In this document: positions 4,658 through 64,000 of the stretch, one piece after another | How the letters are laid out: each line of letters starts with the position of its first letter | Numbering within the stretch: the first letter of the stretch is position 1 | Program-made: the position numbers and the translations under genes | The notes under the pieces: model-generated | Databases searched by the model: none | Told to the model about the DNA's origin: nothing | The model's input: only the letters and a program-made list of their open reading frames with translations | Assembly (NCBI GenBank): GCA_029203185.1 | Contig: CP119310.1 | Location: 3,626,052-3,690,051, forward strand | DNA: 64,000 nucleotides | Direction of reading: 5' to 3' | From: Candidatus Chryseobacterium colombiense | GTDB lineage: Bacteria; Bacteroidota; Bacteroidia; Flavobacteriales; Weeksellaceae

Positions 4658-4680
4658 TTGAATTGAAATCAAGATTTGTT

Positions 4681-5631
4681 ATGAGAAAACTATATGCTAT
4701 CGTATGTTTAGCTCTTTTGTCGAATGCATACAAAGCACAAGAATCACTTCCATATTATCAACAATACTTATTGGATGGTGATTTCCTGTTCAACCCTGCT
4801 CAGTATGGAAAAACAGATGACGTACAACTTAATCTCAACTACCAACAGCAATTTTCAAAGTTCAGCGAGTCTCCCAATGTACAATCAGTGGGGATCAACG
4901 CTAATATCTTTGATAGAGTAGGTGCAGGGATTTCTGTATTTAGAGATAGCAACGGCCCTATTTCTGCTGGAGGTATCACAGCAGGAGCTTCTTACTTTAT
5001 TCCTTTAAGTAGTGAAGGAGACAGAAAAGATCAGTTCTCTTTTGGTACGAGTGTTAATTTTTACAATATGAATTTTGATTATTCAAAAATCAATACTGAA
5101 GAAGGTTATGATCCATTATTACAGGGGAACGAAAGCAATATTTTCATGGTGTATGCTAACTTCGGTTTAGCAGCTACCTATAGAAACTTATTTGGAGGGG
5201 TGTCTGTTAATGATATTGCTTTGAGTAATGACCAATCTATTGTTAATAACTATGAGCCATCTCCGATTAAGTTCTTCTTAAATTTAGGATATGACTGGCA
5301 TGTAGGTGATAATATGTATTTCTCTCCGTCAGTATTGGTAAACCTGAATACCAACTCTACAAGACTTATCGATTATAACTTGATGGCTACTTTCTTTAAT
5401 GACATCAACTCATTCTCTTTCGGGGTAAGTTATAGAGCTGCTCAGAATAGATTTGATAATCAGCAGTTACAGATTGCTCCGGTTGTTAAAGTTAAATTTA
5501 ACAAGTTTATGGTAGGAGCTACTTACAACTTAGGATTATCTGATATCCAGAGTTATGGAGGAAACAGCTTCATGGTAAGTGTAGGTTATAACTTCGATAA
5601 TTTCATTAACCGTAGAGGATATAGATATTAA
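4681..5631 (+). CDS. type IX secretion system membrane protein, PorP/SprF family
   Basis: Signal peptide MRKLYAIVCLALLSNAYKAQ, then the family-typical LPYYQQYLLDGDFLFNPAQYG opening and beta-barrel-like alternating sequence ending in RGYRY. Start moved to the ATG at 4681. Confidence 0.8.
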   Translation: MRKLYAIVCLALLSNAYKAQESLPYYQQYLLDGDFLFNPAQYGKTDDVQLNLNYQQQFSKFSESPNVQSVGINANIFDRVGAGISVFRDSNGPISAGGITAGASYFIPLSSEGDRKDQFSFGTSVNFYNMNFDYSKINTEEGYDPLLQGNESNIFMVYANFGLAATYRNLFGGVSVNDIALSNDQSIVNNYEPSPIKFFLNLGYDWHVGDNMYFSPSVLVNLNTNSTRLIDYNLMATFFNDINSFSFGVSYRAAQNRFDNQQLQIAPVVKVKFNKFMVGATYNLGLSDIQSYGGNSFMVSVGYNFDNFINRRGYRY

Positions 5632-23430: not shown

Positions 23431-23456
23431 AAATTTACAATAACAAAATTTCAGTG

Positions 23457-24632
23457 ATGAGCATTTTACAAAAAGCCAAAGATTATGTTGAAATCTTATT
23501 CAAAGATAAGTTATCTTCGGTATACTTTTATCATAATTTTATTCATACTACTTACACAGTAAACAAGGCTGAAGAAATCTTGAAGCATACACCGGTTTCT
23601 GAAGAAGATCAGGAGAAAGTGCTGCTTGCTCTTTGGTTTCATGATACAGGGTACATAGAATGTGCGCAGAACCATGAAGAAAAAGGCGTTGAAATCATGA
23701 AAGATTTTTTGAAAAAAGAAAATTATCCTGAAAACGGGATCGAAGATATTGCCAAGCTTATTTTAGCTACTAAAATTACTTATGAGCCCCAGAATCTGCT
23801 GGAACAGATTGTAAAAGATTCGGATTGCAGCCATTTTGCGAGCCATGATTATAATGATATTTCTGATGCGCTCAGAAAAGAATGGGAGCTTACCAATGTG
23901 AGATGCTTTTCCAATGATGAATGGAATGCCGGAAATCTGGAAATGCTTAAAAATAAACATAAATTTTACACAGAGTATGCCAAAATGGCGTGGCAGCCTT
24001 TAAAGGAGAAGAATATCAAGAAAATTGAGAAAAAGTTGGAAAAAGAAGATGAAAAGGAAAGCAAAAAAGAAAATTCAGGGAATAAAAAAGAAAAGGAGCC
24101 AAAATCTGACCGAAGTGTGGATACTTTGTTCAGAGTAACGCTGAGTAATCATACGAGATTAAGTGATATTGCGGATAGTAAAGCCAATATTTTGTTATCT
24201 GTAAATGCTATTATCATTTCGGTTTGTCTTTCTGTTTTGGTTCCCAAACTGGATGCTCCAAAGAATTCACATTTGATTATTCCGAGCTTTATTCTTTTGT
24301 TATCCGCGGTTTTAACGATCATATTTGCGATTTTATCTACAAAACCTAATGTTACACAGGCTAAATTTACCTTACAGGACGTTGCCGACCGAAAAGTAAA
24401 TCTTTTGTTCTTTGGTAATTTTAACAGGATGATTTTTGACGATTATCAGAACGCGATGAATGTATTGATCAAAGATCGTGATTATATCTACGATTCGATG
24501 GTAAAAGATTTATATTATCTTGGGAAAGTGCTTGACAGAAAGTACAGGCTTTTGTCTATAACCTATAAAATTTTTATGGCAGGAATCATCATTTCTGTAT
24601 TGTCTTTCGGATATGCCTTTCTTACGCTGTAG
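23457..24632 (+). CDS. HD-domain phosphohydrolase fused to a Pycsar-effector-like (DUF5706/PycTM) three-TM module
   Basis: N-terminus has H...HD (FIHTTYTV...LALWFHDTGY). A K/E-rich linker follows, then RSVDTLFRVTLSNHTRLSDIADSKANILLSVNAIIISV plus two more TM helices and YYLGKVLDRKYRLL. The pattern matches my memory of PF18967. Confidence 0.65.
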   Translation: MSILQKAKDYVEILFKDKLSSVYFYHNFIHTTYTVNKAEEILKHTPVSEEDQEKVLLALWFHDTGYIECAQNHEEKGVEIMKDFLKKENYPENGIEDIAKLILATKITYEPQNLLEQIVKDSDCSHFASHDYNDISDALRKEWELTNVRCFSNDEWNAGNLEMLKNKHKFYTEYAKMAWQPLKEKNIKKIEKKLEKEDEKESKKENSGNKKEKEPKSDRSVDTLFRVTLSNHTRLSDIADSKANILLSVNAIIISVCLSVLVPKLDAPKNSHLIIPSFILLLSAVLTIIFAILSTKPNVTQAKFTLQDVADRKVNLLFFGNFNRMIFDDYQNAMNVLIKDRDYIYDSMVKDLYYLGKVLDRKYRLLSITYKIFMAGIIISVLSFGYAFLTL

Positions 24633-27207: not shown

Positions 27208-28251
27208 TTATTTTATCCTGCTTTTATGGACATAGCCCTGTTTTCCATTTTTCGTTTTAACAAGCCACCAGTCTCCGGATTGATCTAAAACTTCTACCTG
27301 TTCGCCCGAGTTTATTTTTTCTACAATTTCGGAAGATGTATTTTTATCTTTTCTGAGGTTAGTATATCCATCACTATCGTGGATATAGTATTCTGTATTT
27401 TCGCCTTTAATGATATAAGATTTAAAAAACGGCTTATATTTTACATTGTAAAGGGACAATTCATTTTTATCAAGCTTATTAACGATTTTATCATCGATAT
27501 AGTGGTATAAATTATAGTAAATAACCGTTTTGTTTTTCCAGCCTGTATCATATGACGGAGAAAAAATGGCTTCCACTTTATCTGATTTCTCAATCTGTTT
27601 TTTCAGCTCTGGAATTGAAAATTTATTAACAGCATCTTCACTGATTAACAACGCATCCTTTTGAAAATTAATATCCACAATATTCTTATCAAAATAGTCT
27701 TTATTGGTTAAAAATGCCTGCGGAAGATTCTGGTTGATATAATCAAGGAGTTTATTTTGCTTGTATTTATATTCTCCTTTAATAAAATAAGAAGGTTTAT
27801 AGAGAAATAACTGGAATAAATCCAGCTCATAATCTTCCAGATAATATCCTAAATTCTGATCATTGAAAATGAGTGATAAAAAATAATAAGATCTTATATC
27901 ATCCAATTGCTGTATCCGAACGAGCAGCAGTTTGATAAAAAATACCTGTTCGTATTGACCCTGATCAAAATTTCTACTGGTTAAAAATTTAAAAAAGCTA
28001 TTTCTGAAAGACTGATCCTCCAAAGAACTCACTTCTATTTGTTCTATGTATTCTCCGTTATACTTGTATTTATTAAAATCTAAATCTTCAATAAAGGAAT
28101 TGGAAACATTAATTCCATCTTTTAATTTGTCATTTATATTCATTGGAGCTGTTGTATTTTTTGAGGTTTCAGAGATTTTGTCATTTTTGTCCTTACAACT
28201 TATCATTAAAGGCAAAAAAAGTATAAGAAAAAATTTTATAAAACTTTTCAT
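27208..28251 (-). CDS. lipoprotein with C-terminal bacterial SH3 domain (candidate immunity protein)
   Basis: 347 aa with lipobox LMISC. C-terminal GEQVEVLDQSGDWWLVKTKNGKQGYVHKSRI is an SH3b-type motif. Its start lies 1 nt after the stop of the upstream toxin-like gene. Confidence 0.6.
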   Translation of the reverse strand: MKSFIKFFLILFLPLMISCKDKNDKISETSKNTTAPMNINDKLKDGINVSNSFIEDLDFNKYKYNGEYIEQIEVSSLEDQSFRNSFFKFLTSRNFDQGQYEQVFFIKLLLVRIQQLDDIRSYYFLSLIFNDQNLGYYLEDYELDLFQLFLYKPSYFIKGEYKYKQNKLLDYINQNLPQAFLTNKDYFDKNIVDINFQKDALLISEDAVNKFSIPELKKQIEKSDKVEAIFSPSYDTGWKNKTVIYYNLYHYIDDKIVNKLDKNELSLYNVKYKPFFKSYIIKGENTEYYIHDSDGYTNLRKDKNTSSEIVEKINSGEQVEVLDQSGDWWLVKTKNGKQGYVHKSRIK

Positions 28252-28252
28252 A

Positions 28253-30478
28253 TTATTTTTTTATAGTTACTTTACCGGGTTTCACATTAGGATTATTTTT
28301 CTTAAAATCTACCCACCAATCATAGAAAGCTTTTGCATCATCATCCCAGACTCTTATACAACCTTGGGTTCTTTTTAATGTTTTAACTTCATATCCCTCC
28401 TGGCGCCCTCCATGAATTCTTATGGCAGATCTTCCACTTTTTGCAGCTTCATCTTTGTTTCCGGCGATAGGCTCAAAAACAAGTCTAGGATTGGGGCCAT
28501 ATGATTTTCTATTCTCTTTATTGGATTGATAAAAAGGAGTGCTCTGGTTGATCTGAAATTCTCCAAAAGGAACATCCGAATTGGTTTTCATATGATCTTC
28601 ACCTGCAATTCCTTCCAATAAACAGTCATTGAAAGTTAAGACAATTTTTTGGTTATGATCATATACCTCAATTTTTCCTCTTCTACAATTGTTTCTCACT
28701 GCAGTTCTTTCTATGTGAGTACATTTACTTCCTGTATATTTCTCTGTGATTACGACATTCCATGTACTTTTATCCAAGGTAGGCTGTGCAGCCGCAGGTT
28801 CACTTTTATTGCATTCAAAAAATTTCACTTTATTTTGCTTTCCTTCTTCATAAAATTTTGAAATGCTTTTTTCGATTTCCCAGATATAAGTTTTACCTTC
28901 TCCGTCATATTGTTTTTCTCCATTTTCGAACCATATTTTCTTTTCATCATACAATTCAGAGAAAGTCTGGGTTTTTCCGTTACTTCTTTTTACTTTAATA
29001 TTTTTGTGGAGCTCCCCTTCATAATAGAATGCGGGATTTTGACGGTAACCATAATGTCTTGATTTGCTTAGATCGGTCAGGTTTCCGCTTTTGGTATAGG
29101 CAAGAGGATATTTGTTATCAAAAACGACATGGTTTGGCTCATTCCCTTTACCTACATCAACAGGCATCAGGATAGATAGATAAAAATCTGTAAGGGTATT
29201 TATTTTATCTTTTTTCTTTTCAAGATATTTTTCTACATACTCTAATTGCTTAACAGCAGTCATTTTCAGTAATGCTTCGCGTGTGGTTTTAACAGATTTT
29301 GCTGCCGAATCTCCAAACTGTATCAGACCCACATAGCTTGTTCCTTTACCGGCAGTAGGTGAGAAGGTTTTTCCTGTTTCCAAAGCCATTCCTGCCATAA
29401 GGAGATTGGGATCTTTTCCTAGCCTTTTGGCTATTTCAACGACTTTTTTTCTAAACTCACAGCTTACTTTTCCTCCCCATATCAGATCTTTATATTGTTC
29501 TTTACAAATACAGGTACTAGGTGCTTTGCTATCCGCATTTACTACTGTCGGGCTTTTTCCCGATGGATTAGAAGGGGCTGGTTTTTGATCCTTTTTTACT
29601 GTCCCTTTTACTTCCGCCCAATCGTGAATTTTTTTACTAATTTGTGTAACAACTCCTGAAATGACCTCTGTAGTTGTTTCTATGATTCCGTTTTGTTCTT
29701 TTTTGCTCTCTCCCTTTTTGGCAGCCGGAGAACCTGGAACTTTGGGTTGGGAAGTAGGAAGAGCGGGTTTAGATTGAGGTTTTCCTGGAGGGGTATTGAT
29801 TCCGGGAGGAGTATTGACGTTTACATTTTCTGAAGCATGTTTTTTATTTTCATAATATTCTACAGTGACGTAGAATTCCAGTTGTTTTACATCAGTTTCA
29901 CTTTGTATAGCTTTTTTCATCAAAGCTGAGGTAAGTATAAATTCTGCTTTAGCCGCTCCGTTTATTACTTTTCCCTGTTTACTGTCTACCTGCAAATTGT
30001 TAGCATTATGACCACTGTCTTTGGCATCATCTTCCCAAAGTGTAAATTTGAGATATTTTCCCTCTAAACCTACACATTGTGCTTCGGCGATAAGCTTTTC
30101 CGTAAAATTGAAGACTGTTCCCGGAGTATTGTCTACATATTTTAGCTGGATTCTATTTATCTTTGGAGTATCTCCAGGCTGAGGATTTATTTCAAGAGCC
30201 ATTGGAGCCTTGCCTTCCGGTTCGTGTAGATATGCTTCAATTCTATAAGTATTCTGATAGGCATTATTTTGAAATGTAAAACTGCTGATTCCTTTCTTTT
30301 TGATATTGGTAGGAACAAATTTTCCATTTACTTTCTTAAAAAGTTGCCATGTAACCAATGTCGGATTTCTTTTTTCTTTAGGGGTTGCCGGATACCATTC
30401 ATCAATGGTATAGGTTACAGTTTCTCCTATTTTGGGCTGGGTATTACCGGAAATTTTATAAACGCCTTGTTTTGACAT
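28253..30478 (-). CDS. multidomain peptidoglycan-targeting toxin candidate: SLT-like lytic transglycosylase motif plus C-terminal YkuD (L,D-transpeptidase)-like domain
   Basis: 741 aa with no signal peptide. A P-rich linker lies around aa 222-310. ALETGKTFSPTAGKGTSYVGLIQFG (aa 365-389) fits the GH23/SLT E-S-x-F-x-P...G-L-x-Q pattern. IRIHGG-x15-TQGCIRVWDDD (aa 686-714) fits the YkuD H-x(14-17)-[ST]xGC pattern. Confidence 0.65.
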   Translation of the reverse strand: MSKQGVYKISGNTQPKIGETVTYTIDEWYPATPKEKRNPTLVTWQLFKKVNGKFVPTNIKKKGISSFTFQNNAYQNTYRIEAYLHEPEGKAPMALEINPQPGDTPKINRIQLKYVDNTPGTVFNFTEKLIAEAQCVGLEGKYLKFTLWEDDAKDSGHNANNLQVDSKQGKVINGAAKAEFILTSALMKKAIQSETDVKQLEFYVTVEYYENKKHASENVNVNTPPGINTPPGKPQSKPALPTSQPKVPGSPAAKKGESKKEQNGIIETTTEVISGVVTQISKKIHDWAEVKGTVKKDQKPAPSNPSGKSPTVVNADSKAPSTCICKEQYKDLIWGGKVSCEFRKKVVEIAKRLGKDPNLLMAGMALETGKTFSPTAGKGTSYVGLIQFGDSAAKSVKTTREALLKMTAVKQLEYVEKYLEKKKDKINTLTDFYLSILMPVDVGKGNEPNHVVFDNKYPLAYTKSGNLTDLSKSRHYGYRQNPAFYYEGELHKNIKVKRSNGKTQTFSELYDEKKIWFENGEKQYDGEGKTYIWEIEKSISKFYEEGKQNKVKFFECNKSEPAAAQPTLDKSTWNVVITEKYTGSKCTHIERTAVRNNCRRGKIEVYDHNQKIVLTFNDCLLEGIAGEDHMKTNSDVPFGEFQINQSTPFYQSNKENRKSYGPNPRLVFEPIAGNKDEAAKSGRSAIRIHGGRQEGYEVKTLKRTQGCIRVWDDDAKAFYDWWVDFKKNNPNVKPGKVTIKK

Positions 30479-30495
30479 AACATTGCAATTTGGGG

Positions 30496-30996
30496 TTAGA
30501 TGGCATCGGCTTCATTGTCACTATTTTCCTTTTGGAATTCTTTAAAGTCCATAAAAGGATTAATGTTATGTTGTTCCTGAGGATCTGCATTCTGAACATT
30601 TTGATTATTCATAGCAGCAGTTTGCCCGTGTTCTTTTATTGTAATTTTTCCGCCTGTTGTACACATAAGTTCGGAAAGTTCTGTGACACAGGATTTGCCC
30701 ATGATTTTTACCTGTTCATAAGTTTTCTGCCATTTTCCGGCGGGTGCAAATGCACAAGGAAGATATCCTCCAGATGTAGGCTTGAGTTTACATTGTCCAA
30801 AACTTGGGCCTGGAGGAGTAAATTGCACATCGTCTTCTGTAACGGCTAAATAATCAGCTTCTCCTTCCTCACTGTTCCAATAATGTTTTTGGTGAGAAGT
30901 TACTTTATACTGCGGAAATTGATTGCCCTGATTACATTGGGCTTTCCCTTTTTGTACAACGAAATGCTTTCCGTCGTGTGGAGATGAACCGGACAT
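30496..30996 (-). CDS. DUF4280 (PAAR-like) domain protein
   Basis: 166 aa. HFVVQKGKAQCNQGN...FGQCKLKPTSGGYLPCAF...WQKTYEQVKIMGKSCVTELSELMCTTGGKITIKEHGQ reproduces the conserved Cys/Gly spacing I remember for PF14107. An acidic tail of about 40 aa follows. Confidence 0.7.
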   Translation of the reverse strand: MSGSSPHDGKHFVVQKGKAQCNQGNQFPQYKVTSHQKHYWNSEEGEADYLAVTEDDVQFTPPGPSFGQCKLKPTSGGYLPCAFAPAGKWQKTYEQVKIMGKSCVTELSELMCTTGGKITIKEHGQTAAMNNQNVQNADPQEQHNINPFMDFKEFQKENSDNEADAI

Positions 30997-31045
30997 ATTT
31001 TGTGTGTATTGATTTGGTTTTATAAATCTATAAAAAAATTAAGAG

Positions 31046-31068
31046 CAAAAAAGTAGTAGAATTACTAC
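31046..31068 (-). terminator. weak hairpin/terminator after the LysM-like gene
   Basis: GTAGTA (31053-31058) pairs with TACTAC (31063-31068). On the minus strand it is followed by a T-run (plus-strand A-run 31047-31052). The stem is short and AT-rich. Confidence 0.3.
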
Positions 31069-31123
31069 ATTTTTAAAACTTTAAATATTCACCTCATACA
31101 CTAATTGTTAAAAATAGTATTGC

Positions 31124-32188
31124 TTACTTCTCCTGTTTTTCCATCATGAAGATTTCTTTTTCCGTTACATCATCAATATATATATTGAAAGCAGCTTCTA
31201 TTTTCTTAAAAGATAAATCTGTTCGGTTAAAGCTGTACTCTGAAAAATAATCGCAATTAACAGCATTTTCTGTTAAAGGAGCTTTAGTATCAAAAATGGA
31301 AGACTTGGAGTAGAGCTGATCCATACTTCGGTTATCTGACGAACGTCCACTTTGGATAATTTTTAAGACAGCATCATTTTCTTTGGGCTGGATTGTATTC
31401 CGGAGTTCGAATCGGATAGGAGAGGCATTGGTAATCCAGGGTACAAAATCATAATAGATTTGTGAATCTGTCCAGTCACCATAGATTGCTCTATAGAAAG
31501 TACCTGTCAGAAAATGGACAGGTAATGTATTTTTGAGATTTTCTAAGAGAATTTTTTTATTTTCTATGACCGATTTCATTTGATTAATATATGAACTGGA
31601 ATATTCATCCGTGAAATAACTTTTCAGGGTCTCGAGGTGATCTTTAATTAAATTTTCAGGACTGGTTAAGCGGATATCTTTAATTTCAGTTTCCTCATTA
31701 ATGATAATTTGTAAAGGATATAAGACTTCAACACATGCTTTTGCCAAACTGGACATTTTGGTATCCGATTCTATTCCTTCTTTTTTAAAATCATACATTT
31801 GAAGGCTGAAAATATGTTCACTGTTATCAAGCTGGATATAGTTAAGATCAATTTGATACTCGTAATCTGTTAATAGAGCGTCATTTAAAAACTTCTGATG
31901 ATTAATTGTATACTTGCCTTTTAATAAATCAATTGGAAAGGGAATTTTACCTTGAGGCGGATGGTAATATAAGCTATCTCCGTTTTCAATAATTTTTTTG
32001 TTAAGTTCCTTTATTTCATTTCCAAATGGGAGCAGGAGAGATTGTCCCGTTCTCAAATCATCAAAAAAGCGTTCATGCTTAGCACAATGGGTATTATGAA
32101 ATTCTCTGAGATAGATTGGGTTTTCGATTTTAAGATCGGATGCAATTTTTTCTAATGAATCGTTGGGAAGGGCTATATAGGTAATCAT
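31124..32188 (-). CDS. hypothetical protein with N-terminal LysM-like motif
   Basis: 354 aa. YIALPNDSLEKIASDLKIENPIYLREFHN...LRTGQSLLLP resembles LysM (Y.V..GDTL..IA......L...N..L..GQ.L.IP) with an insertion. The rest is unassigned. Confidence 0.45.
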   Translation of the reverse strand: MITYIALPNDSLEKIASDLKIENPIYLREFHNTHCAKHERFFDDLRTGQSLLLPFGNEIKELNKKIIENGDSLYYHPPQGKIPFPIDLLKGKYTINHQKFLNDALLTDYEYQIDLNYIQLDNSEHIFSLQMYDFKKEGIESDTKMSSLAKACVEVLYPLQIIINEETEIKDIRLTSPENLIKDHLETLKSYFTDEYSSSYINQMKSVIENKKILLENLKNTLPVHFLTGTFYRAIYGDWTDSQIYYDFVPWITNASPIRFELRNTIQPKENDAVLKIIQSGRSSDNRSMDQLYSKSSIFDTKAPLTENAVNCDYFSEYSFNRTDLSFKKIEAAFNIYIDDVTEKEIFMMEKQEK

Positions 32189-32291: not shown

Positions 32292-32322
32292 CAAAAAAAC
32301 CTTTCAAGTAATTTGAAAGGTT
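32292..32322 (-). terminator. terminator of the nuo operon
   Basis: AACCTTTCAA (32298-32307) pairs with TTGAAAGGTT (32313-32322). A T-run follows on the minus strand (plus-strand A-run 32293-32299). It lies 26 nt downstream of the nuoN stop. Confidence 0.7.
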
Positions 32323-32347
32323 TTTAAATTTTATAATGGTAAGGCTT

Positions 32348-53571: not shown

Positions 53572-55350
53572 TTATTGTACAATGAATTTTGTTGTGTTTA
53601 TATCTGTTTTCAGAATATAGACTCCTTTCGATAAGTTTTTAAGATCTATCTTATTAGAATTTTTAAACGGATGATGAATCACCTGAATAAGCTTTCCTGA
53701 AAGGTCAATAATTTCTGCTTTTGTGATTTTACTGATATTTTCACCCTTCACAAACAGTTCATTATTCTTAACAGGGTTAGGATAGATGCAGAATGTGTTA
53801 TCTTTTGAAGTTTCTGAAGTCGACAAACTGGTGTAGCAAGTCCAGCTTAGGTCATCAATAGCCACTCTGTTTGCTGAAACCGGATTAACTAGTTTAATGG
53901 TAACATTACCACTTACATTGATGTTGTTGATTGTATATGTTCCTGCTGTTGCACTGTAGGGAATGGTTCCAACCTGAACACCATTTACTAACAGATTTAA
54001 AGCACTGTCAGAACCGTTGAATTTCAACTGAGTTTTTACAGTTAAGCTTTGGATTCCTCCGGAAAGGGTAGAGCTTAATAAATAACCGTCTCTTATCGTG
54101 ATTGCTTTTCCAGTAATCGTTTGGTCTGTTCTTGCATCTGTTGCATTCCATGTGATTCCGTTGTTAGTCCACGTTTGGGTCGCATAGCTTGAAGAGGCTG
54201 CCGGAATATTGCTGAAGTCTTCAGTACCACAACTTCCTCCGCCCGGCTGTCCTGCAAGAGTCGTTTCTGTTGCAGTGTTACTCTGTGGCGATGAGTTCCC
54301 AGCGGCATCTCTGGCAATAACATAGAATGTATAGGTAGTAGAAGGGGTTAATCCCTGAACTGTTGCGGTAGTTCCTGTAACGGTAGCATAGAAAGTTCCG
54401 TTTGAAAAATAAATATCATAACCTGTCACTCCAATATTGTCAGTAGCTGCAGTCCAGCTCAAAGAAATTGAATTGCTTGTAGGGTTATTCGCAATTAAAT
54501 TAGTTGGTGCTGTAGGAGCTTGAGTATCAACAACTGGTGTTCCCCAAATCTGATCAACGTATTCAGGATGGTCAATATAAGGATTTCTGTTTCCCTGATA
54601 TACATAAGAAGCATTATTTCTTCCGATTTCTGCAGGAGAAACAGGGTCTAATGCATTCCAAGCCAACAGCTGATTAAGTTCCCAAGTCTGAAGACCAGGA
54701 AAAGCTGAGCTTCCCAACATATTTCCAGAGCTGAATCCAGAAAGCTGTGTTTCATATCTTGTTACAAAATAAAGGATCATTCTTGCCACATCTCCTTTAA
54801 AGGCATCAACAGGTTCAAAAACAGTTCCTGAATATCCCGGAGACACAGAAGTTCCAAGTTTAGATCCGTTTAAGGAAGTAAAAGATGCTGTACCTACTTT
54901 TCCATAAGGATAGTTAGACCTCATTCCGTTTACCTTTCCGTCAGTAGCTCTAATGAAGTGAATATCTGCAACCATAGGAGAGCCACTGTTGAATAAACTC
55001 TGTGGTACTACGTGTTCTCTATTGTAGCAGTTTCCTTCTGTAGTGTAAGAGCCGCACTGGTTGGTTCCATAATTGAATGTGTAAGGATCGGGACCATTGG
55101 CGTTTTCGGAATAAATATCTAAAATTGTTCCGTCGTTTTCATAATAATAATCACGGTCTGTAGTTTGATAGCCACTCCAAAGCCCGTTATAGCCGTGATC
55201 AATATGACCACTGGTGATAATCTGATTCAGCTTACTTTTTAAAGCAGCGCCAGTAAGTCCTGTTGTTCCGTTATAGTATCCTGCCGGAATTTGTGCAAAC
55301 GCATTGATGAATACAAATGCAAACAACAAAGAAAATAATATTCGTTTCAT
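53572..55350 (-). CDS. secreted endonuclease I-family nuclease with FN3 domain and T9SS C-terminal sorting domain
   Basis: 592 aa with a signal peptide. N-terminal YYNGTTGLTGAALKSKLNQII...CYNREHVVPQS resembles endonuclease I. LSWTAATDNIGVTGYDIY marks FN3. The C-terminal FCIYPNPVKNNELFV...GVYILKT is a type-A T9SS CTD pattern. Confidence 0.8.
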   Translation of the reverse strand: MKRILFSLLFAFVFINAFAQIPAGYYNGTTGLTGAALKSKLNQIITSGHIDHGYNGLWSGYQTTDRDYYYENDGTILDIYSENANGPDPYTFNYGTNQCGSYTTEGNCYNREHVVPQSLFNSGSPMVADIHFIRATDGKVNGMRSNYPYGKVGTASFTSLNGSKLGTSVSPGYSGTVFEPVDAFKGDVARMILYFVTRYETQLSGFSSGNMLGSSAFPGLQTWELNQLLAWNALDPVSPAEIGRNNASYVYQGNRNPYIDHPEYVDQIWGTPVVDTQAPTAPTNLIANNPTSNSISLSWTAATDNIGVTGYDIYFSNGTFYATVTGTTATVQGLTPSTTYTFYVIARDAAGNSSPQSNTATETTLAGQPGGGSCGTEDFSNIPAASSSYATQTWTNNGITWNATDARTDQTITGKAITIRDGYLLSSTLSGGIQSLTVKTQLKFNGSDSALNLLVNGVQVGTIPYSATAGTYTINNINVSGNVTIKLVNPVSANRVAIDDLSWTCYTSLSTSETSKDNTFCIYPNPVKNNELFVKGENISKITKAEIIDLSGKLIQVIHHPFKNSNKIDLKNLSKGVYILKTDINTTKFIVQ

Positions 55351-57522: not shown

Positions 57523-57596
57523 AGGTCCTATAGCTCAGTTGGTTAGAGCACCTGACTCATAATCAGGTGGTCCCTGGTTCGAGCCCAGGTGGGACC
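57523..57596 (+). tRNA. tRNA with CAT anticodon (elongator Met or lysidine-modified Ile2)
   Basis: Hand-folded 74-nt cloverleaf. Acceptor GGTCCTA/TGGGACC, D-stem GCTC/GAGC, anticodon stem CCTGA/TCAGG with loop CTCATAA, T-arm CCTGG-TTCGAGC-CCAGG. The G1-C72 pair and the absence of a GGG/CCC anticodon stem argue against an initiator. Confidence 0.9.
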
Positions 57597-57608
57597 ACTT
57601 TTTAAATC

Positions 57609-57639
57609 AAGCACTTACAGAAATGTAGGTGCTTTTTTT
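57609..57639 (+). terminator. hairpin/terminator after the tRNA
   Basis: AAGCACTTAC (57609-57618) pairs with GTAGGTGCTT (57625-57634) with one G-U pair, followed by a T-run. Confidence 0.55.
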
Positions 57640-57796
57640 GTGCTTTATTCTTTATTTTAGGGTGTTGTAGTATTGTCTTAATTACTACAATTCAATTTGT
57701 TCTATATAATCAGATGTATAGAATGCTTATTAAAAGGTGTCCTATTAGGTGTCCCACTTCTACTTTTTGGTGACCCATTTTCTAAAATTTAAATCA

Positions 57797-59005
57797 ATGA
57801 ATAACAATAAATTATCAATACTTTTTCTATTGCAGAAAGCAAAAGTGAATCAACAAGGAAAGTGTCCTCTCAGATGTAGGATTACATTTCAACAAGACAG
57901 AAAAGAGTTTTCTGTAGGATTATTCATAAACCCCAATTACTGGAATAGCAAACAGCAGAAAGCTAAACCACCCAATGATGAAAGTATTTTTATCAACTCT
58001 CAATTAAGCCTGATTAAAAATGAAATTAATCAGGCTTTTTTATTTCTACAGGTCAGTAGCAGTGATTTTAATATTGAAGATATTTATTCACAATACAAGG
58101 GACATGCTCCTAAAAAAGATAAAAGTATAATCCAGCTTTTTCAAGAGCATAACGAAAGAGTTGAAAAATTGGTAGGGAAGGAGTATTCTATAGCAACCTT
58201 ATGGAAATTCAAACAGGCAAAAGAGTTATTAAAAGACTTTCTTAAATCTTATTTCAACAAAGCTGATTATCATTTCAAAGATTTAAACTTGAAATTTATT
58301 CAGGATTATGAGTTTTACTTGAAGACAGAAAAGTCTTTAGCTATTGTTACTACGAATAAAATGATACAGAGATTCAGGAAGATTGTAAAGATAGCTATAT
58401 CTCAAGATATTATATACAAGGAACCATTTATTAACTATAGAGTTAAACATATAAAGAAAGAAATTATTTATTTAACGAAGGAAGAATTAGCTAAAATTGA
58501 AGATTACCAATTTAAAGCTGAAAGATTACAAATGATTGCTGATATGTTTGTATTTTGTTGTTATACTGGGTTAGCTTATAATGAAATGGTTAATCTTGAA
58601 AAGTCTCACATTGTAAAAGGTCTAGATGATAATGAATGGATAAATATGATGAGAGAGAAAACTCATAATATGTTATCAATACCTTTGCTTACTAAGGCTA
58701 AGAAGATAATTGAAAAATATGATTATGTCGATAACAAACGAGTTTTACCTAAGTTCAGTAATCAGAAGTTTAATTCTTACCTTAAAGAAATAGCAGACAT
58801 TGTTGATATTGAGAAAAGATTAACTCACCATTTAGCAAGAAGAACCTTTGCTACAACTGTATTGCTCTTTAATGATGTTCCAATGGAAATAGTGTCAGAA
58901 CTTTTAGGGCATTCTAAGATTGGTATTACTCAACAGCATTATGCAAAGGTTGTTAAAAAGAAGGTTGGGGAGCAGATGAGTAAGTTAAATTCTAAGCTGA
59001 AATAG
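57797..59005 (+). CDS. site-specific tyrosine recombinase (phage-type integrase, Bacteroidota Arm-DNA-binding type)
   Basis: The N-terminal LSILFLLQKAKVNQQGKCPLRCRITF is the typical Bacteroidota integrase opening. The catalytic region has HHLARRTFAT and LLGHSKIGITQQHYAKV (R...HxxR...H...Y). Start moved to the ATG at 57797. Confidence 0.9.
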   Translation: MNNNKLSILFLLQKAKVNQQGKCPLRCRITFQQDRKEFSVGLFINPNYWNSKQQKAKPPNDESIFINSQLSLIKNEINQAFLFLQVSSSDFNIEDIYSQYKGHAPKKDKSIIQLFQEHNERVEKLVGKEYSIATLWKFKQAKELLKDFLKSYFNKADYHFKDLNLKFIQDYEFYLKTEKSLAIVTTNKMIQRFRKIVKIAISQDIIYKEPFINYRVKHIKKEIIYLTKEELAKIEDYQFKAERLQMIADMFVFCCYTGLAYNEMVNLEKSHIVKGLDDNEWINMMREKTHNMLSIPLLTKAKKIIEKYDYVDNKRVLPKFSNQKFNSYLKEIADIVDIEKRLTHHLARRTFATTVLLFNDVPMEIVSELLGHSKIGITQQHYAKVVKKKVGEQMSKLNSKLK

Positions 59006-59054
59006 CCTGATATTAAATGCTTTGTAGTAAATTTACAAGTCAGTTTATAAGATT

Positions 59055-61484
59055 ATGTATAAAAAACTACTAACAGTTGAAAACACTCCAATTCAGTACA
59101 AGGAAATCAGACCTACTGACTTTGAAGGCTATAATATTTCTGATGAAGATTTAATAATAATCAAGGAAGATGAAAAAGGATATATCTCTGATTTTCTTGG
59201 ATCAAACATTGATTTAAGCATTAAAGATACAACAGTCATCAATGCAAGTGTTGGGCAGGGTAAGACAACAGCATTGGTAGACATGGTTAAAAGATACCAT
59301 CAGGATAACAATTACATGGTTTTGTTAGTTTCTCCTTTTAAGTCTTTGCTTGACCAATATTATTCATCATTACTTAGTAAGGGCATTCCTTACAAAGACA
59401 TATTCGACTATAGAGCTTTAGAAGATGAGAATTTCGATGATGAAAACTCTGACCCTATTAATAGAAGAATACAGCTTATAACCTTTAATTTCCTACTTGG
59501 AAATTCAGGAGAAACTTATCTGAAGCAGTCTTCTAAAAAGACTGAGTTTATAGATGAAATACTGGGGAAATGCAAAGAAGAGAACAGAAAGGTTGTTCTC
59601 ATTTTTGATGAGGTACATGATGCTATTCACAATTTCAAAGAAGAGTTAGTATTCAATCTGTTCAGGTGGAGGAAATATGTACACAAAATCTTTGTATCAA
59701 GTGCAACTTATAATGAAGCTTCAAAAGTAGTAATCAAGTATTTTGCAGAGCTTACTGACAGGAAGATTAAAATATTCGAGTCTCTAAGAAAGCAAGATGA
59801 AGACAATCTTAGTGAGCTTAATGTTATGATATATGACCACAGCACCTATGATGTTGATAATATTAATCTGATTAATCTTTTCAGGAGTGAGATTGGTAAG
59901 GCTTCTAAAATTAATATTTTGACTTACACCAAGGCACTTACAGACAGATTAAGTAAGAGTATAATAGGTAAAGAAATCAGGAAATCTTATGGAGATATTA
60001 ATATCTGTACTTCTGATACTGGAAATATTTTTGATGATTCCAAATGTAATATGGGAACTAACTTTAAGACTGGAATAAGTATCAATAAGAAAGATACAGC
60101 CTATTTTATATTTCTACCACAGAAAAGGTCTTATGAAAAGTTACCTGGGGAGTTGGGCGTTTTTACAGAAGGCATTAATACCTTAATCCAAGCCTTGGCA
60201 AGACCAAGAGAGAAAGCAAGAATTTATGTGATAACACCCAATGTTACTAGTGTATTAGTAACGTCAAATGACCCAATACCAAAGTCCAATGCTATAATCA
60301 ACATCAACAAACAAGATAGGCTCCTAAGGTTGTTCTATGACCAGACCAAAGAAAAACTTAAGGAAGAAATTGGATATTTTGAAGATGGGCATACTTTGAT
60401 TAATGCAAGGTTTCCTGACTATGACCAATTTAAGCTGTCTCAAGGTGAGAAGTATTTTAGGGTCTATTTTGATGCCTTTGGAAAGAATCTTTCTAACTAC
60501 TTCAACTGGGCTGCAAGAAATAATCAGTTTGTTAACTGTAAACTTAAGTATCTCTTTAAGCTTGATCTGGAAATAGAAGAAGGTAAGATGTTACAAGGTA
60601 TTAAGGATTATTTTAACTCAGCTTTTTATGAGAGTGAGATGTTTAGATACCTTTCTCCATCAGAGCAGTATCAACAACTTAGAGAATCTATTTTTTCAAA
60701 TTATGTAACTATTAAATCAAAAGATAACAGTATTAAAGAGCTCAAACCTTATGGTAAAGTAGAATTTGAAAAGAATATAATTAAGTTTATTCAGCAATAC
60801 AACAGTCCTATCCCATACTTGGAAGACTATCTAGGTATTAATTATGAGAACTATGTTGATACAATGAGCCATAAGGAAACAATAGACACTATAGAAAAAT
60901 TAGAGCCTCATAAGAAGACTGCCCTATTAAACTATAAGCATTACAAACAAGATGATTATGTAATTTCTACTGAAGAATACATCAGAAGTTCCATGTACTT
61001 TGCTAAGAATACTTCTTTAAAAACAGAAACAATTTCAAAGAATGAGGACAGTTTAATCTACCTGTATTCAAAACTATATGACTTTAAGGATACTTTGACA
61101 AGTTATCTCAAGAGCAATGCTAATGGACAAGTAATACTACCCCAAGACAAGGATTTTAAATTCAACAGCACTGATTTCAGTTACCTGGAAAGCTTAATTG
61201 ATAGGTTGAAACAACATGACCCCACTCTTAAAAATGTTTTCAATTTTATGCAGACTGGTATTAGTGAGAAAAAGGTTTATAGTCTTTTGAAAAAACTGTA
61301 TTTCGAAACAGACAGAACAAGTATAAACTCAGGCTCAGGTAAACAGACTTACATTAAAAGGGATATTACAGATGATGAGCATGGAAAGACCAACTTAATT
61401 TACAAACACATTGATTTTGTCAGCTTAGTGAAAAGCTATCAGGAAGAGTATACAAAGGAGTACCTGGAGGCTAAAGAAGACTAA
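59055..61484 (+). CDS. SF2 helicase-like protein with about 400 aa of unassigned C-terminal region
   Basis: 809 aa. Motif I SVGQGKTT, Ia LLVSPFKSL, II IFDEVHD (DExH), III SSATY, and a VI-like QALARPRE. The C-terminal half has no motif I recognise. Confidence 0.6.
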   Translation: MYKKLLTVENTPIQYKEIRPTDFEGYNISDEDLIIIKEDEKGYISDFLGSNIDLSIKDTTVINASVGQGKTTALVDMVKRYHQDNNYMVLLVSPFKSLLDQYYSSLLSKGIPYKDIFDYRALEDENFDDENSDPINRRIQLITFNFLLGNSGETYLKQSSKKTEFIDEILGKCKEENRKVVLIFDEVHDAIHNFKEELVFNLFRWRKYVHKIFVSSATYNEASKVVIKYFAELTDRKIKIFESLRKQDEDNLSELNVMIYDHSTYDVDNINLINLFRSEIGKASKINILTYTKALTDRLSKSIIGKEIRKSYGDINICTSDTGNIFDDSKCNMGTNFKTGISINKKDTAYFIFLPQKRSYEKLPGELGVFTEGINTLIQALARPREKARIYVITPNVTSVLVTSNDPIPKSNAIININKQDRLLRLFYDQTKEKLKEEIGYFEDGHTLINARFPDYDQFKLSQGEKYFRVYFDAFGKNLSNYFNWAARNNQFVNCKLKYLFKLDLEIEEGKMLQGIKDYFNSAFYESEMFRYLSPSEQYQQLRESIFSNYVTIKSKDNSIKELKPYGKVEFEKNIIKFIQQYNSPIPYLEDYLGINYENYVDTMSHKETIDTIEKLEPHKKTALLNYKHYKQDDYVISTEEYIRSSMYFAKNTSLKTETISKNEDSLIYLYSKLYDFKDTLTSYLKSNANGQVILPQDKDFKFNSTDFSYLESLIDRLKQHDPTLKNVFNFMQTGISEKKVYSLLKKLYFETDRTSINSGSGKQTYIKRDITDDEHGKTNLIYKHIDFVSLVKSYQEEYTKEYLEAKED

Positions 61485-61558
61485 CATAATTAAGGACAAA
61501 ATATAATCCTACTTCTATAAGGTACAGGGTAAATTTTGTCCTTATTCTGAAAAAATTC

Positions 61559-61596
61559 AGCCAACCTACAATTCAGTAAGGTTGGCTTCTTTATTT
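61559..61596 (+). terminator. hairpin/terminator after the helicase-like gene
   Basis: AGCCAACCT (61559-61567) pairs with AGGTTGGCT (61579-61587), followed by TCTTTATTT. It is preceded by a second long-loop inverted repeat, AAGGACAAAAT (61492-61502) with ATTTTGTCCTT (61532-61542). Confidence 0.45.
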
Positions 61597-61700
61597 GCAA
61601 CACAGCAAAAACACTTTAAAGTTTACACCTTAGGAACTCTATAAAAAGAAATCTTATAGAAGTTTCAAATTAATCTTAACAATTTTAAATACAAAATATT

Positions 61701-62618
61701 ATGCAATTAAAACAGTCACAAAGACAACAAGTAAAGCTCAGATTAGGATTATCAGGAGCTAGTGGATTTGGAAAGACCAAATCAGCTTTATTATTAGCCT
61801 ATGGAATGACACAGGACTGGAATAAAATAGCAGTCATAGACACAGAAAACTCCTCAGCTTCCCTGTATTCTGACCTGGGTAGCTATAAGGTGTTGGACTT
61901 ACAAGCTCCTTATTCACCAGAAAGATATATACAAGCTATAGAATTGTGTGAAAAGTCAGGAATTGAAGTCATTATCATAGATTCAGCCAGCCATGAATGG
62001 AATGGTTCTGGTGGATGTCTTGAAATACATGAGAAACTAGGTGGTAGGTTTCAGGATTGGGCTAATGTAACTCCAAGACATCAAGCGTTCATCAACAAGA
62101 TATTACAGTCAAGCTGTCATATCATTACCACTACAAGAAGGAAGATGGACTATTCTTTAGATATTGGTTCTAATGGTAAAACAAAAGTAGTCAAACATGG
62201 AACCAAAGAAATCACTAGGGATGGCTTTGAATACGAATTAACTATCAACTTCGAATTAATTAATGATAATCATTTGGCTAAAGCAAGTAAGGATAGAACA
62301 GGGCTGTTCATGAATAAACCTGAGTTTTTGATAACCCCTCAAACTGGTAAGGTGATTCTTGACTGGTGTAATGCAGGAACAATTAACCAAGCCCAGGTAA
62401 CCCCTTCTATGCCTAAACAAAGTTACCTGGGCACTAATGAGATTAACGCTCTAATTAATAAAATAGGAGACTGTAATGCAATTAGTGACCTTTTAGCTCT
62501 TTACAAACAATATCCCCAATATCAGGAAGAGTTAAAGCCTGAATATGAAGCCAGAAAATCATTTTTAATCAAACTGTCTAACCCACAAAACTTTTCAACT
62601 AATGGAGTACACAGATAA
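61701..62618 (+). CDS. AAA_24-type (Sak4-like) phage/element ATPase
   Basis: 305 aa with Walker A GASGFGKT, VIDTENS, and Walker B VIIIDSASHEW. Confidence 0.7.
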   Translation: MQLKQSQRQQVKLRLGLSGASGFGKTKSALLLAYGMTQDWNKIAVIDTENSSASLYSDLGSYKVLDLQAPYSPERYIQAIELCEKSGIEVIIIDSASHEWNGSGGCLEIHEKLGGRFQDWANVTPRHQAFINKILQSSCHIITTTRRKMDYSLDIGSNGKTKVVKHGTKEITRDGFEYELTINFELINDNHLAKASKDRTGLFMNKPEFLITPQTGKVILDWCNAGTINQAQVTPSMPKQSYLGTNEINALINKIGDCNAISDLLALYKQYPQYQEELKPEYEARKSFLIKLSNPQNFSTNGVHR

Positions 62619-63729
62619 TACAGCAGTAATGGAACTGCACAATGTTCAAAGAAGCAGTCACCTTAACCTGGAGGCTGTAAATATCCAAGAGGCAGAGGTC
62701 TTTTATCCAAGCAGAATGAATGAAATTAAGGAGGTTGAACCAAGAAGTGTTCAGCCTCTTTTGATTTCTAATGCAGTCAATACTATCATTAGCACAACAG
62801 GCTCTACCTATGTTCATAAACCTTTTATTGAAGCTAATACCTTACAGGTAGATTTAAATCATCTTAAAAGTGAGTGTATTATTCCTGTATTTAGTAAGGA
62901 CAATGAAAAGACCATTGCTCACCAAGAGTTTATAGAGATTGTTATTAATACAGTGTTGAAACTGTTTCCTCACCATAGTATCAGTAATCCTGAAATAAGG
63001 GTGTCACATCAAATAAAAGGCAGAACTCCTGATGCTATCTATAAAAGTGCTAAGGAATTATTAGACCATGAGAAGACCATTTACTATGAAAGAATGGCTT
63101 TTATTATTCAAATACCATCTATTGTAGATACTATCAATGGTAATGAATTAGCTCTTACTTTGGGAGGAGTAAGAAGTTATAACCTGGAGAACCTTTACAA
63201 CAAGAAAACCTTTGAAAAATTCAAGTTCTTCATTGGCTTTCAAAATAAGGTTTGCTGTAATTTATGTGTTAGTTTTGATGGTTTTGTAGAAGAAATGAGA
63301 GTTGGAAATTATCGTGAACTACAGGAGAAAATTACTCATGTGATTCAAAACTACAATGCAGAAAGCCACCTGGAGGTTATGAAATCTTTATCTCATAGTC
63401 ACCTTACAGAACATCAATTTGCCCAGCTCTTAGGTAGGTCAAGGTTATACCAACATCTATCCAAAAAGGAGAAATTGGTAATTCCAAGTCTGAACTTTAA
63501 TGACAGTCAGCTTAATACAGTTGCAAAAGACTATTACGAAGATGAAAGCTTTTGCAGGAATGAAGATGGAAACATTAGCCTATGGAATGTGTATAATCTC
63601 TTTACACAGGCTAATAAGAGTAGTTATATAGATACTTTCCTTGACAGGAACTTGAATGCTTTTGAATTCTCAAGAGGTATACAGAAAGTACATAATGGTG
63701 ATAATAAGTACCATTGGTTTTTAAGTTAG
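62602..63729 (+). CDS. DUF3871/DUF932-like mobile-element protein
   Basis: 375 aa. It overlaps the upstream ATPase gene by 17 nt. The family is assigned only from memory of Bacteroidota element gene order (AAA ATPase followed by DUF3871). No catalytic motif is recognised. Confidence 0.4.
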   Translation: MEYTDNTAVMELHNVQRSSHLNLEAVNIQEAEVFYPSRMNEIKEVEPRSVQPLLISNAVNTIISTTGSTYVHKPFIEANTLQVDLNHLKSECIIPVFSKDNEKTIAHQEFIEIVINTVLKLFPHHSISNPEIRVSHQIKGRTPDAIYKSAKELLDHEKTIYYERMAFIIQIPSIVDTINGNELALTLGGVRSYNLENLYNKKTFEKFKFFIGFQNKVCCNLCVSFDGFVEEMRVGNYRELQEKITHVIQNYNAESHLEVMKSLSHSHLTEHQFAQLLGRSRLYQHLSKKEKLVIPSLNFNDSQLNTVAKDYYEDESFCRNEDGNISLWNVYNLFTQANKSSYIDTFLDRNLNAFEFSRGIQKVHNGDNKYHWFLS

Positions 63730-63734
63730 TTTTT

Positions 63735-63760
63735 TATAGCCACTGATTTAAGTGGCTATA
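63735..63760. other. 10-bp-stem hairpin between convergent element genes
   Basis: TATAGCCACT (63735-63744) pairs with AGTGGCTATA (63751-63760). It overlaps the stop codon of the minus-strand partial ORF. There is no clean U-tract on either side. Confidence 0.4.
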
Positions 63761-63998
63761 ATTCTACTGTATAGATCCAAAATCTAGAAATTCCTTGGGA
63801 TGTTTCTTTTTCATATCCTTCACAAAAAGGGAATATTATACTTGCAGGTTTATCCAAGCATTCTTTCACATAATACAAAGCAACACCTAATGTTTGGGCT
63901 TTGCTTGAGAGTGGGCTTAAATATAAATTTGTTATTTGTTTGTGTGAATTAATTTTTGCGATTGTCTTACTTAGTAAAGATGCTGTTACAAATGGATC
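63756..63998 (-). CDS. hypothetical protein, C-terminal 80 codons only (N-terminus outside the window)
   Basis: Own translation of the minus strand: ...DPFVTASLLSKTIAKINSHKQITNLYLSPLSSKAQTLGVALYYVKECLDKPASIIFPFCEGYEKETSQGISRFWIYTVEL, with the stop at 63758-63756. The frame is open to the window edge. Confidence 0.35.
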   Translation of the reverse strand, partial: DPFVTASLLSKTIAKINSHKQITNLYLSPLSSKAQTLGVALYYVKECLDKPASIIFPFCEGYEKETSQGISRFWIYTVEL

Positions 63999-64000
63999 AT

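Follow-up and report, generated by a model that had tools for sequence, protein, structure and literature searches.

We looked at a 64,000-nt stretch of the chromosome of Candidatus Chryseobacterium colombiense (GCA_029203185.1, contig CP119310.1, forward-strand positions 3,626,052-3,690,051; hereafter the window, in whose own numbering all its coordinates are given), and within it at a four-gene module on the minus strand at 27208-32188. It is very likely that this module is an auxiliary spike-cargo set of the Bacteroidota class iii type VI secretion system (T6SSiii), carried at a conserved site after nuoN. It would encode an adaptor, a DUF4280 PAAR-like spike tip, an effector combining a lytic transglycosylase (LT) with a YkuD domain, and an immunity lipoprotein. 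What carries this reading are the domain identities, the homology of the products to the chains of one solved cargo complex (PDB 9jg8), the linkage to T6SSiii genes in relatives, the polymorphism of the cargo, and a lipoprotein that varies together with the toxin. The cassette adds a member to an arrangement that has recently been described; it founds no new kind of system and does not overturn current understanding. A sequence-only reading of the same DNA had already proposed a T6SSiii-type set of PAAR-like protein, toxin and immunity protein, and this is borne out by the gene linkage in C. gambrini and Flavobacterium anhuiense, by a fusion of the toxin to Hcp/TssD and by a lipoprotein that tracks the toxin. 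Its alternative of a minimal, undescribed delivery module gained no support. It had also held the arrangement to be one that could not be named; the LysM-like partner is an adaptor of the BtapC/Ate3 type, and work on Bacteroides fragilis from 2025-2026 has described the layout of adaptor, DUF4280 protein, beta-sandwich effector and lipoprotein (PMC13402684).

The four genes and their products

The module consists of four intact open reading frames (ORFs) in the same direction, encoding proteins of 354, 166, 741 and 347 aa and separated, from adaptor to lipoprotein, by 127, 17 and 1 nt; the four co-oriented genes and the two tight gaps of the sequence-only reading were thus found as described. 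On one side the module is flanked by the terminator of nuoN and on the other by a gene encoding a 771-aa GAF-like protein. The hairpin after nuoN, a terminator-like site of 13-14 pairs followed by a T run that marks the upstream boundary of the module, does exist, at 32295-32325 (minus strand) and not at 32292-32322 as first given, a shift of three bases.

The 166-aa protein (30496-30996) was recognized directly. As had been proposed from its Cys/Gly pattern, it is a DUF4280 protein, with a Pfam match (PF14107) at E 7.8e-19 and 68.7 bits against a cut-off of 26.3, covering all 109 profile positions (1-109). PAAR-like DUF4280 proteins are defined by four conserved metal-binding cysteines (PMC5014421); C21, C69, C81 and C112 are invariant across seven homologues with identity down to 35%, while C103 varies. 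The protein stands alone, and it aligns with the N-terminus of BtpeA (chain B of 9jg8, E 1.9e-5). Since this N-terminus sits on VgrG in 9jg8, the 166-aa protein is predicted to bind the tip of the VgrG trimer. We also observed that its C-terminal tail (residues ~126-166, 30496-30621, QNVQNADPQEQHNINPF...) keeps a 'NAD...INP' pattern even in Flavobacterium homologues of 35% identity, and that the alignment of the tail with BtpeA runs to BtpeA residue ~140. This tail may be a contact site for the adaptor or the effector.

For the 354-aa protein (31124-32188), in which no signal peptide is visible, Pfam and NCBIfam gave nothing usable, and PDB searches with the single sequence or with a profile of close orthologues (A1) found no match. 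Since family libraries and single-sequence searches were silent, its identity came solely from a fold search and a wide family profile. An AlphaFold2 model built from 37 orthologues (predicted local distance difference test, pLDDT, 85.5; predicted template-modelling score 0.79) showed a beta-alpha-alpha-beta unit in residues 2-53 (E2-5, H12-19, H25-34, E50-53; 32030-32185) and eleven strands after residue 90, forming an open beta-barrel over residues 91-351 (31136-31918). The top Foldseek match of this model was chain A of 9jg8 (E 3.5e-9, template-modelling (TM) score 0.69 on the target), and later matches were lipid-binding open barrels (MTP, ApoB, lipovitellin). We then collected 261 relatives from a scan of 1.84 billion representative proteins and built from 139 of them, headed by the window protein, a family profile (A3) with which to search the PDB. 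At E 2.8e-22 this profile found 9jg8_A, entered as 'Bacteroides T6SS Adapter Protein C', and positions 5-56 of the profile matched the solved LysM domains of LytE (E 3.9e-9), 4uz2 (E 4.5e-7) and MltD (E 0.006). The LysM-like character claimed for this protein thus stands on fold and family profile and not on Pfam, whose LysM model (PF01476) did not match the window protein and reached sub-threshold scores in five of the 37 orthologues (best E 0.019). The gene adjoins the DUF4280 gene and the effector in the window, in all 22 of the related loci recovered, and in two further loci (L028 and L029). By profile and by model, the 354-aa protein is a T6SS adaptor of the BtapC/Ate3 type that carries a LysM domain at its N-terminus. 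That it would be needed for contact between effector and tip and for secretion is expected from what is known for Ate3 in B. fragilis (PMC13402684).

Of 138 full-length representatives of the adaptor family, 65, or about half, have the N-terminal LysM domain. We noticed that NCBI names many Chryseobacterium proteins of 275-283 aa 'DUF4280 and LysM peptidoglycan-binding domain-containing protein', and that the N-terminus of one such LysM-DUF4280 protein matches a hidden Markov model of the adaptor N-domain at E 5.6e-11. A decidedly unlikely idea is that this LysM, on the window adaptor, on around half of its family and on many sister DUF4280 proteins, does real work in the spike complex, either binding glycans or docking to the hub. 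In one version it would accompany the spike and anchor cargo that degrades peptidoglycan to the sacculus of the target; in the other it would attach the cargo set to one particular VgrG, a role that LysM-like domains play in phage baseplates. If true, this would be a so-far undescribed layer of targeting or specificity in T6SSiii effector loading. How cargo is chosen or directed is a simple question that LysM-bearing adaptors and tip proteins make testable.

The 741-aa effector (28253-30478) showed no hydrophobic signal sequence when read by eye, as the sequence-only reading had stated. Its AlphaFold2 model (overall pLDDT 73.9) consists of an N-module of two beta-sandwiches (residues 1-225, 29804-30478; pLDDT ~80), which we propose as the loading domain, a disordered Lys/Pro/Ser-rich linker (residues 227-321, 29516-29800; pLDDT below 50), an LT domain (residues 322-556, 28811-29515) and a YkuD toxin domain of the L,D-transpeptidase fold (residues 565-741, 28256-28786). 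In Foldseek the N-module matched the N-terminal domain of BtaeB (9jdh, E 1.1e-8) and 9jg8_C (E 2.3e-8), both ranking after the LT structure 9udh.

The two enzymatic domains were identified by different routes. The SLT-type motif reported earlier is not seen by Pfam SLT (PF01464), which gave no match on the effector at E<=1, but an LT is indeed there: the stretch 333-451 aligns with 9udh, a solved lytic transglycosylase, at E 2.3e-25 (Foldseek rmsd 1.5, 44% identity) and with the phage internal protein 9k2v_E at E 1e-6, and the ALETG and GLIQ positions E367 (the catalytic Glu), G384, L385 and Q387 are nearly invariant in the family. The YkuD call was confirmed by Pfam, with an E value of 2.5e-8, above the cut-off, over residues 633-723. 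The motif reads H689-x14-T704-Q705-G-C707-I, so that a Gln replaces the second His of the H-x14-17-(S/T)-H-G-C-h motif. Among 17 homologues the H, G, C and R of this domain are invariant, and position 705 is Q, H, E, S or K. The Foldseek search with the whole 741-aa model was dominated by Ig-like matches and was uninformative on the YkuD domain.

The last gene encodes a 347-aa protein (27208-28251) whose N-terminus, MKSFIKFFLILFLPLMISC, reads as a lipobox with Cys19 (28195-28197) and whose end (residues 297-346, 27214-27363) matches Pfam SH3_3 at E 2e-13, in agreement with the lipoprotein with an SH3b tail announced from the sequence. Outside this tail neither Pfam, NCBIfam nor the PDB gave a match, the PDB search returning SH3 domains only. 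A homologue of the core (residues ~38-282, 27406-28140) directly follows the toxin gene in all five of the other complete LT-YkuD loci examined (L007, L028, L029, L030 and L005), with identities of 89% in C. tagetis, 68% in Chryseobacterium sp. c4a, where the locus lies at a different chromosomal site, 34% in F. anhuiense, 28% in Flavobacterium sp. H122 and 29-31% at the TssD fusion locus. No such homologue was found after the M23 effector of C. gambrini (L003). The SH3b tail is an add-on of the Chryseobacterium copies. These comparisons indicate that the lipoprotein co-varies with the toxin cassette rather than with the loading module; it is predicted to be the immunity protein that neutralizes LT-YkuD, and its core would define a new immunity family. 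At the TssD fusion locus (L005) two ORFs make up the homologue, one of 63 aa holding the signal peptide and one of 235 aa, and a frameshift may have divided them.

T6SSiii linkage and cargo exchange in related genomes

Neither a tblastn search that used six T6SSiii proteins as queries nor Pfam scans of 26 ORFs, not all of the small ones included, found T6SS structural genes in the 64-kb window, in agreement with the earlier statement that the injection machinery is not in this window. We looked for the link in relatives. In C. gambrini (L003) the order of genes is TssO, TssO, a PKD protein, TssR, DUF4280, a 742-aa homologue of the effector (N-module, LT and M23), two lipoproteins, a 319-aa adaptor homologue, TssD, ClpV, SLT, VgrG and a Tle1-like protein; the adaptor homologue of this T6SSiii cluster has 30% identity to that of the window. 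In F. anhuiense (L029) the order is TssN, an adaptor-like gene, DUF4280, a separate N-module gene, LT-YkuD and the immunity homologue. A third link is P0044, a TssD(Hcp)-LT-YkuD fusion. According to published scans, almost every complete Chryseobacterium genome has a full T6SSiii gene set, in many cases divided among several loci, up to 4-5, and the species that bear such sets include C. indologenes, C. arthrosphaerae and C. bernardetii (PMC10781749). These three species also carry the module or the adaptor family.

At the F. anhuiense locus (7190-9245 of L029) the N-module (252 aa) and LT-YkuD (414 aa) are two separate adjacent genes, and further LT-like, SH3 and CHAP-like genes follow LT-YkuD, possibly forming an effector/immunity array. 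At the fusion locus (9989-12516 of L005) the LT-YkuD cassette is joined to TssD/Hcp in place of the beta-sandwich module, which suggests that delivery of the toxin is possible through the tube too and not just on the spike.

Baseplate proteins of phage-like machines can contain LysM domains, and this counts in favour of the idea that the module is cargo for another contractile injection system, an extracellular one (eCIS) or a tailocin, and not for T6SSiii. DUF4280/PAAR-like proteins are also reported at eCIS tips (PMC8651086). However, every informative neighbourhood is of the T6SSiii type (TssO/R/D/ClpV/VgrG in C. gambrini, TssN in F. anhuiense, TssD in the fusion), the closest solved structures are chains of a T6SS cargo complex, and no sheath, tube or baseplate genes of any kind lie nearby, which makes an eCIS or tailocin origin very improbable.

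To define the nuoN flank in the genus, we scanned one genome per species with strict peptide patterns. This recovered 22 Chryseobacterium loci which, because of the strict patterns, show synteny and not prevalence. Nineteen of the 22 read nuoL-nuoM-nuoN-adaptor-DUF4280-effector. The effectors at this site share their first ~225-313 residues (58-85% identity), after which comes a variable stretch; beyond it, where the contig allows, the GAF gene and an HD-PycTM gene are found again. Most of these effectors are of ~1000 aa and end in M23, and the LT-YkuD version was found at this site in the window, in C. tagetis RG1 and in one metagenome-assembled genome. The comparison across relatives proposed with the sequence-only reading thus shows that the loading genes are kept and the toxin/immunity part varies. 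The term island used there holds for the cargo/immunity nature of the locus and fails for a sporadic occurrence; as far as the gene order tells, the nuoN flank serves the genus as a conserved locus for exchangeable T6SS cargo.

This synteny bears on another reading, namely that the module is the remnant of a prophage or tailocin, a lysis or tail-lysin cassette. Its one attraction is that the best solved relatives of the LT are phage proteins, 9udh being a 'bacteriophage lytic transglycosidase' and 9k2v_E an internal protein. Yet the interval from nuoN to the GAF gene has no phage genes, synteny at the locus extends throughout the genus, and the nearest integrase (57749-59005, beside a tRNA-Met gene) is more than 25 kb away; a phage remnant is the least probable of the readings weighed here.

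The exchange of cargo on a T6SSiii loading set was seen most directly in the sister strain Chryseobacterium sp. S-02 (L006). By blastn, the window and this strain share 84-91% DNA identity on both sides of the locus and none between 29442 and 28136, which delimits a swappable cassette (28136-29442) made of LT-YkuD and the first ~40 codons of the lipoprotein. Along the effector, identity is 76-92% and then falls to 18-38% after residue ~344. The replacement in S-02 is a different LT-M23 end (LT-variant-M23) with its own lipoprotein, and just downstream of the swapped cargo S-02 keeps a copy of the window lipoprotein with 91% identity. Judged by position and identity, this copy appears to be an orphan immunity gene, as expected of effector-immunity loci.

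Several other features of S-02 were observed. A second, tandem cargo set lies right after nuoN (3926-9887 of L006), encoding a 342-aa adaptor, a 283-aa LysM-DUF4280 fusion, a 744-aa effector ending in CHAP, a lipoprotein and a 265-aa protein. In addition, four genes are inserted between adaptor and DUF4280 (11413-14883 of L006, minus strand), with a Cys-rich 371-aa product and products of 297, 318 and 93 aa; judged by eye, this insertion looks like a small peptide-modification cluster, resembling those for ribosomally synthesized and post-translationally modified peptides. Between the window and S-02 the adaptor has 79% aa and 84% DNA identity, and the flanking nuoN and GAF genes have 97% and 98% aa identity; the loading genes may be diversifying alongside their cargo.

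Since there are several DUF4280 paralogues per species (P0331, P0388 and P0398 in C. jejuense; P0343 and P0373 in C. contaminans) and two tandem sets in S-02, the window set is probably one of several. This matters for a reading in which the locus is an essential, dispersed part of the T6SSiii, its complex of tip, adaptor and effector being needed for assembly and firing and its toxicity being secondary. Deletion of bte3, ate3 or pte3 abolishes Hcp secretion in B. fragilis (PMC13402684), and such a role would fit the splitting of Chryseobacterium T6SSiii genes over up to 4-5 loci (PMC10781749), the position at the nuoN flank kept in 19 of the 22 loci, and the equivalent C. gambrini genes inside the main cluster. 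Against this, the paralogues and the tandem sets make redundancy likely. We regard an essential role as possible, though on balance unlikely.

The exchange of the effector C-terminus extends beyond the nuoN flank. The N-module is common to proteins ending in M23, Amidase_2, GH19, CHAP or VanY. Some relatives keep residues 1-313 or 1-560 of the effector and then have other C-termini, and others keep residues 323-741 behind different N-modules. Recombination breakpoints fall at about residues 313-345, 447 and 560, with a cluster at ~313-345. The family thus behaves as a polymorphic toxin. The nuoN flank itself offers a natural series of cargo swaps (YkuD, M23, CHAP/GH19) at one fixed chromosomal site.

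This polymorphism also bears on a housekeeping role, in which cell-wall remodelling enzymes, a LysM protein and an SH3b lipoprotein would act on the cell's own wall. NCBI calls the homologues L,D-transpeptidase, and all the domains are peptidoglycan-related. But the 741-aa enzyme lacks a signal peptide and so has no Sec route into the periplasm of its own cell, its gene is translationally packed after one for a PAAR-like protein, different species give it different C-termini (M23, CHAP, GH19, amidase) on a constant N-module, and the LysM protein is homologous to a T6SS adaptor. We consider a housekeeping role extremely improbable.

Altogether, eCIS cargo, housekeeping enzymes and phage remnant were rejected on the evidence of neighbourhood, signal peptide, swap and synteny.

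Proposed mechanism and surrounding genes

In the T6SSiii spike-cargo reading, the 166-aa DUF4280 protein would cap the VgrG trimer as its PAAR-like tip, and the 354-aa adaptor would bridge this tip and the two N-terminal beta-sandwiches of the effector, which would thereby be carried on the spike. Export of the effector is predicted to depend on the T6SS. Upon firing, it would reach the periplasm of a neighbouring Gram-negative cell, where the LT domain would cut glycan strands and the YkuD domain, which probably works like Tlde1, would cleave or rewire peptide stems as an L,D-carboxypeptidase or transpeptidase. Sister cells would be protected by the 347-aa periplasmic lipoprotein, its core neutralizing the LT-YkuD cassette and its SH3b tail holding it on the sacculus.

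Several points weigh against this proposal. The fold match between the N-module and BtaeB has an rmsd of 10.9-15 and a TM score on the target of 0.30-0.41, and generic tandem Ig-like proteins score E 5e-6, just 2-3 orders of magnitude worse than BtaeB. The YkuD domain alone and a 17-sequence profile of it matched no solved L,D-transpeptidase in the PDB at E<=10, a negative that covers Tlde1a on the assumption that the Tlde1a crystal structure (PMC9638812) sits in the PDB copy searched; because of this and of the Gln at the second motif His, the activity and substrate of the domain are uncertain. The lipoprotein may neutralize either toxin domain. Interactions, secretion, enzymatic activities, toxicity and protection are extrapolated from B. 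fragilis (PMC13402684) and from Tlde1 (PMC9638812), and the presence of T6SS machinery elsewhere in this genome is extrapolated from the genus.

With its high rmsd and the generic Ig tandems close behind, the match between the N-module and BtaeB would by itself be suggestive. It gains weight because all three non-immunity genes map to one solved spike-cargo complex: the adaptor to chain A (BtapC), the DUF4280 protein to the N-terminus of chain B (BtpeA) and the N-module to chain C.

We also looked at the surroundings of the module. The window is ordinary Chryseobacterium chromosome, with ddl, murI, the nuo operon and ribD among its genes. A consensus promoter scan did no better than shuffled sequence (29 sites against 25.3 expected), hence we make no promoter claim, and in PADLOC the four module genes matched no defence system. 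At 23454-24632 (plus strand) lies a 392-aa fusion of an HD phosphohydrolase (E 3.3e-9) with PycTM (Pfam E 2.4e-32, PADLOC E 3.1e-16), with no cyclase gene seen alongside. It accompanies the GAF gene in many Chryseobacterium species and, because of this conserved neighbour, is unlike a mobile defence island. At 57524-64000 we found tRNA-Met (57524-57598), the tyrosine integrase already mentioned, a DEAD/ResIII helicase (59055-61484) and an AAA_24 protein (61701-62618); with these genes there probably begins an integrated mobile element whose remainder lies past the end of the window. A protein combining Endonuclease I and fn3 with a type IX secretion C-terminal sorting domain, and so a secreted nuclease, is encoded at 53572-55350 (minus strand), and a PorP/SprF gene lies at 4663-5631.

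Comparison with known systems

The closest described arrangement is the T6SSiii module of B. fragilis GA3 made of Bte3, Ate3, Pte3 and Bti3 (Nat Commun 2026, PMC13402684), in which Bte3 depends for its secretion on two proteins, the adaptor Ate3, described as an open barrel of 11 strands, and Pte3, which is of the DUF4280 type, Bti3 being a lipoprotein; orthologues in Flavobacterium columnare have already been noted there. Drawn from this published description and not from a direct sequence comparison, the likeness to Ate3 and Bte3 consists in a stand-alone DUF4280 protein, an 11-strand open-barrel adaptor and a lipoprotein immunity gene in a group of four adjacent genes. Unlike Bte3, which has three sandwiches and a C-terminal open barrel without an assigned target, the window effector has two sandwiches followed by LT and YkuD; unlike Ate3, the window adaptor has an extra N-terminal LysM domain. 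The window module also puts the adaptor and tip genes first and lies outside the main T6SS cluster, at the nuoN flank.

The three non-immunity products can likewise be set beside the BtapC-BtpeA-BtaeB cargo complex on VgrG (PDB 9jg8 and 9jdh; Li et al. 2025, Cell Host Microbe 33:1901, as cited in PMC13402684). The adaptor matches BtapC by profile and by fold, the DUF4280 protein matches the N-terminus of BtpeA, and the N-module shows a suggestive fold match to the N-terminal domain of BtaeB. BtapC, a 254-aa chain, lacks the LysM domain, since it starts at the barrel and aligns from position 81 of the A3 profile. BtpeA is a 608-aa PAAR-like effector with a DUF3289 toxin; the window tip protein has no toxin domain, so that only one effector would be loaded in the window set. 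If the proposed roles hold, the loading scheme of adaptor, PAAR-like protein and effector, tested experimentally so far only in gut Bacteroides, would extend to environmental Flavobacteriales.

Tlde1 is a YkuD-fold T6SS toxin of Salmonella Typhimurium, with Tldi1 as its immunity protein (PMC9638812). The window shares with this pair a YkuD domain, recognized by Pfam, the H-x14-17-(S/T)-x-G-C motif and an adjacent gene for a putative periplasmic immunity protein, its delivery being predicted. It differs in having no sequence relationship to the solved Tlde1a detectable even by profile, in the Gln at the second motif His (present as His in some homologues), in the fusion of YkuD to a lytic transglycosylase and a loading module, and in its Bacteroidota host and T6SSiii. 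Because the profile search found no solved L,D-transpeptidase, we did not file the domain as a member of the Tlde1 family, and as far as Pfam, NCBIfam and PDB searches show, the window immunity protein is unrelated to Tldi1. What we describe is thus a candidate two-enzyme peptidoglycan toxin, LT plus an L,D-transpeptidase fold, with a putative new immunity family, and the public annotations 'L,D-transpeptidase' and 'hypothetical protein' of the module genes can be corrected in this sense.

Francisella IglG and F. johnsoniae Fjoh_3275/Fte1 are DUF4280 PAAR-like proteins (PMC5014421), and the window tip resembles them in having this domain and its four conserved cysteines. In IglG a helical extension at the N-terminus binds IglF, whereas the window tip has only a short conserved C-terminal tail, and unlike IglG, sister Chryseobacterium DUF4280 proteins carry an N-terminal LysM.

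Auxiliary T6SS clusters of Vibrio cholerae carry swappable effector-immunity modules and orphan immunity genes. The nuoN flank resembles them in its fixed site, its conserved loading genes, its exchangeable toxin/immunity part and an immunity gene apparently kept after replacement of the effector. It differs in belonging to T6SS class iii and not i, and in using an adaptor of the BtapC/Ate3 type instead of DUF4123, DUF1795 or DUF2169.

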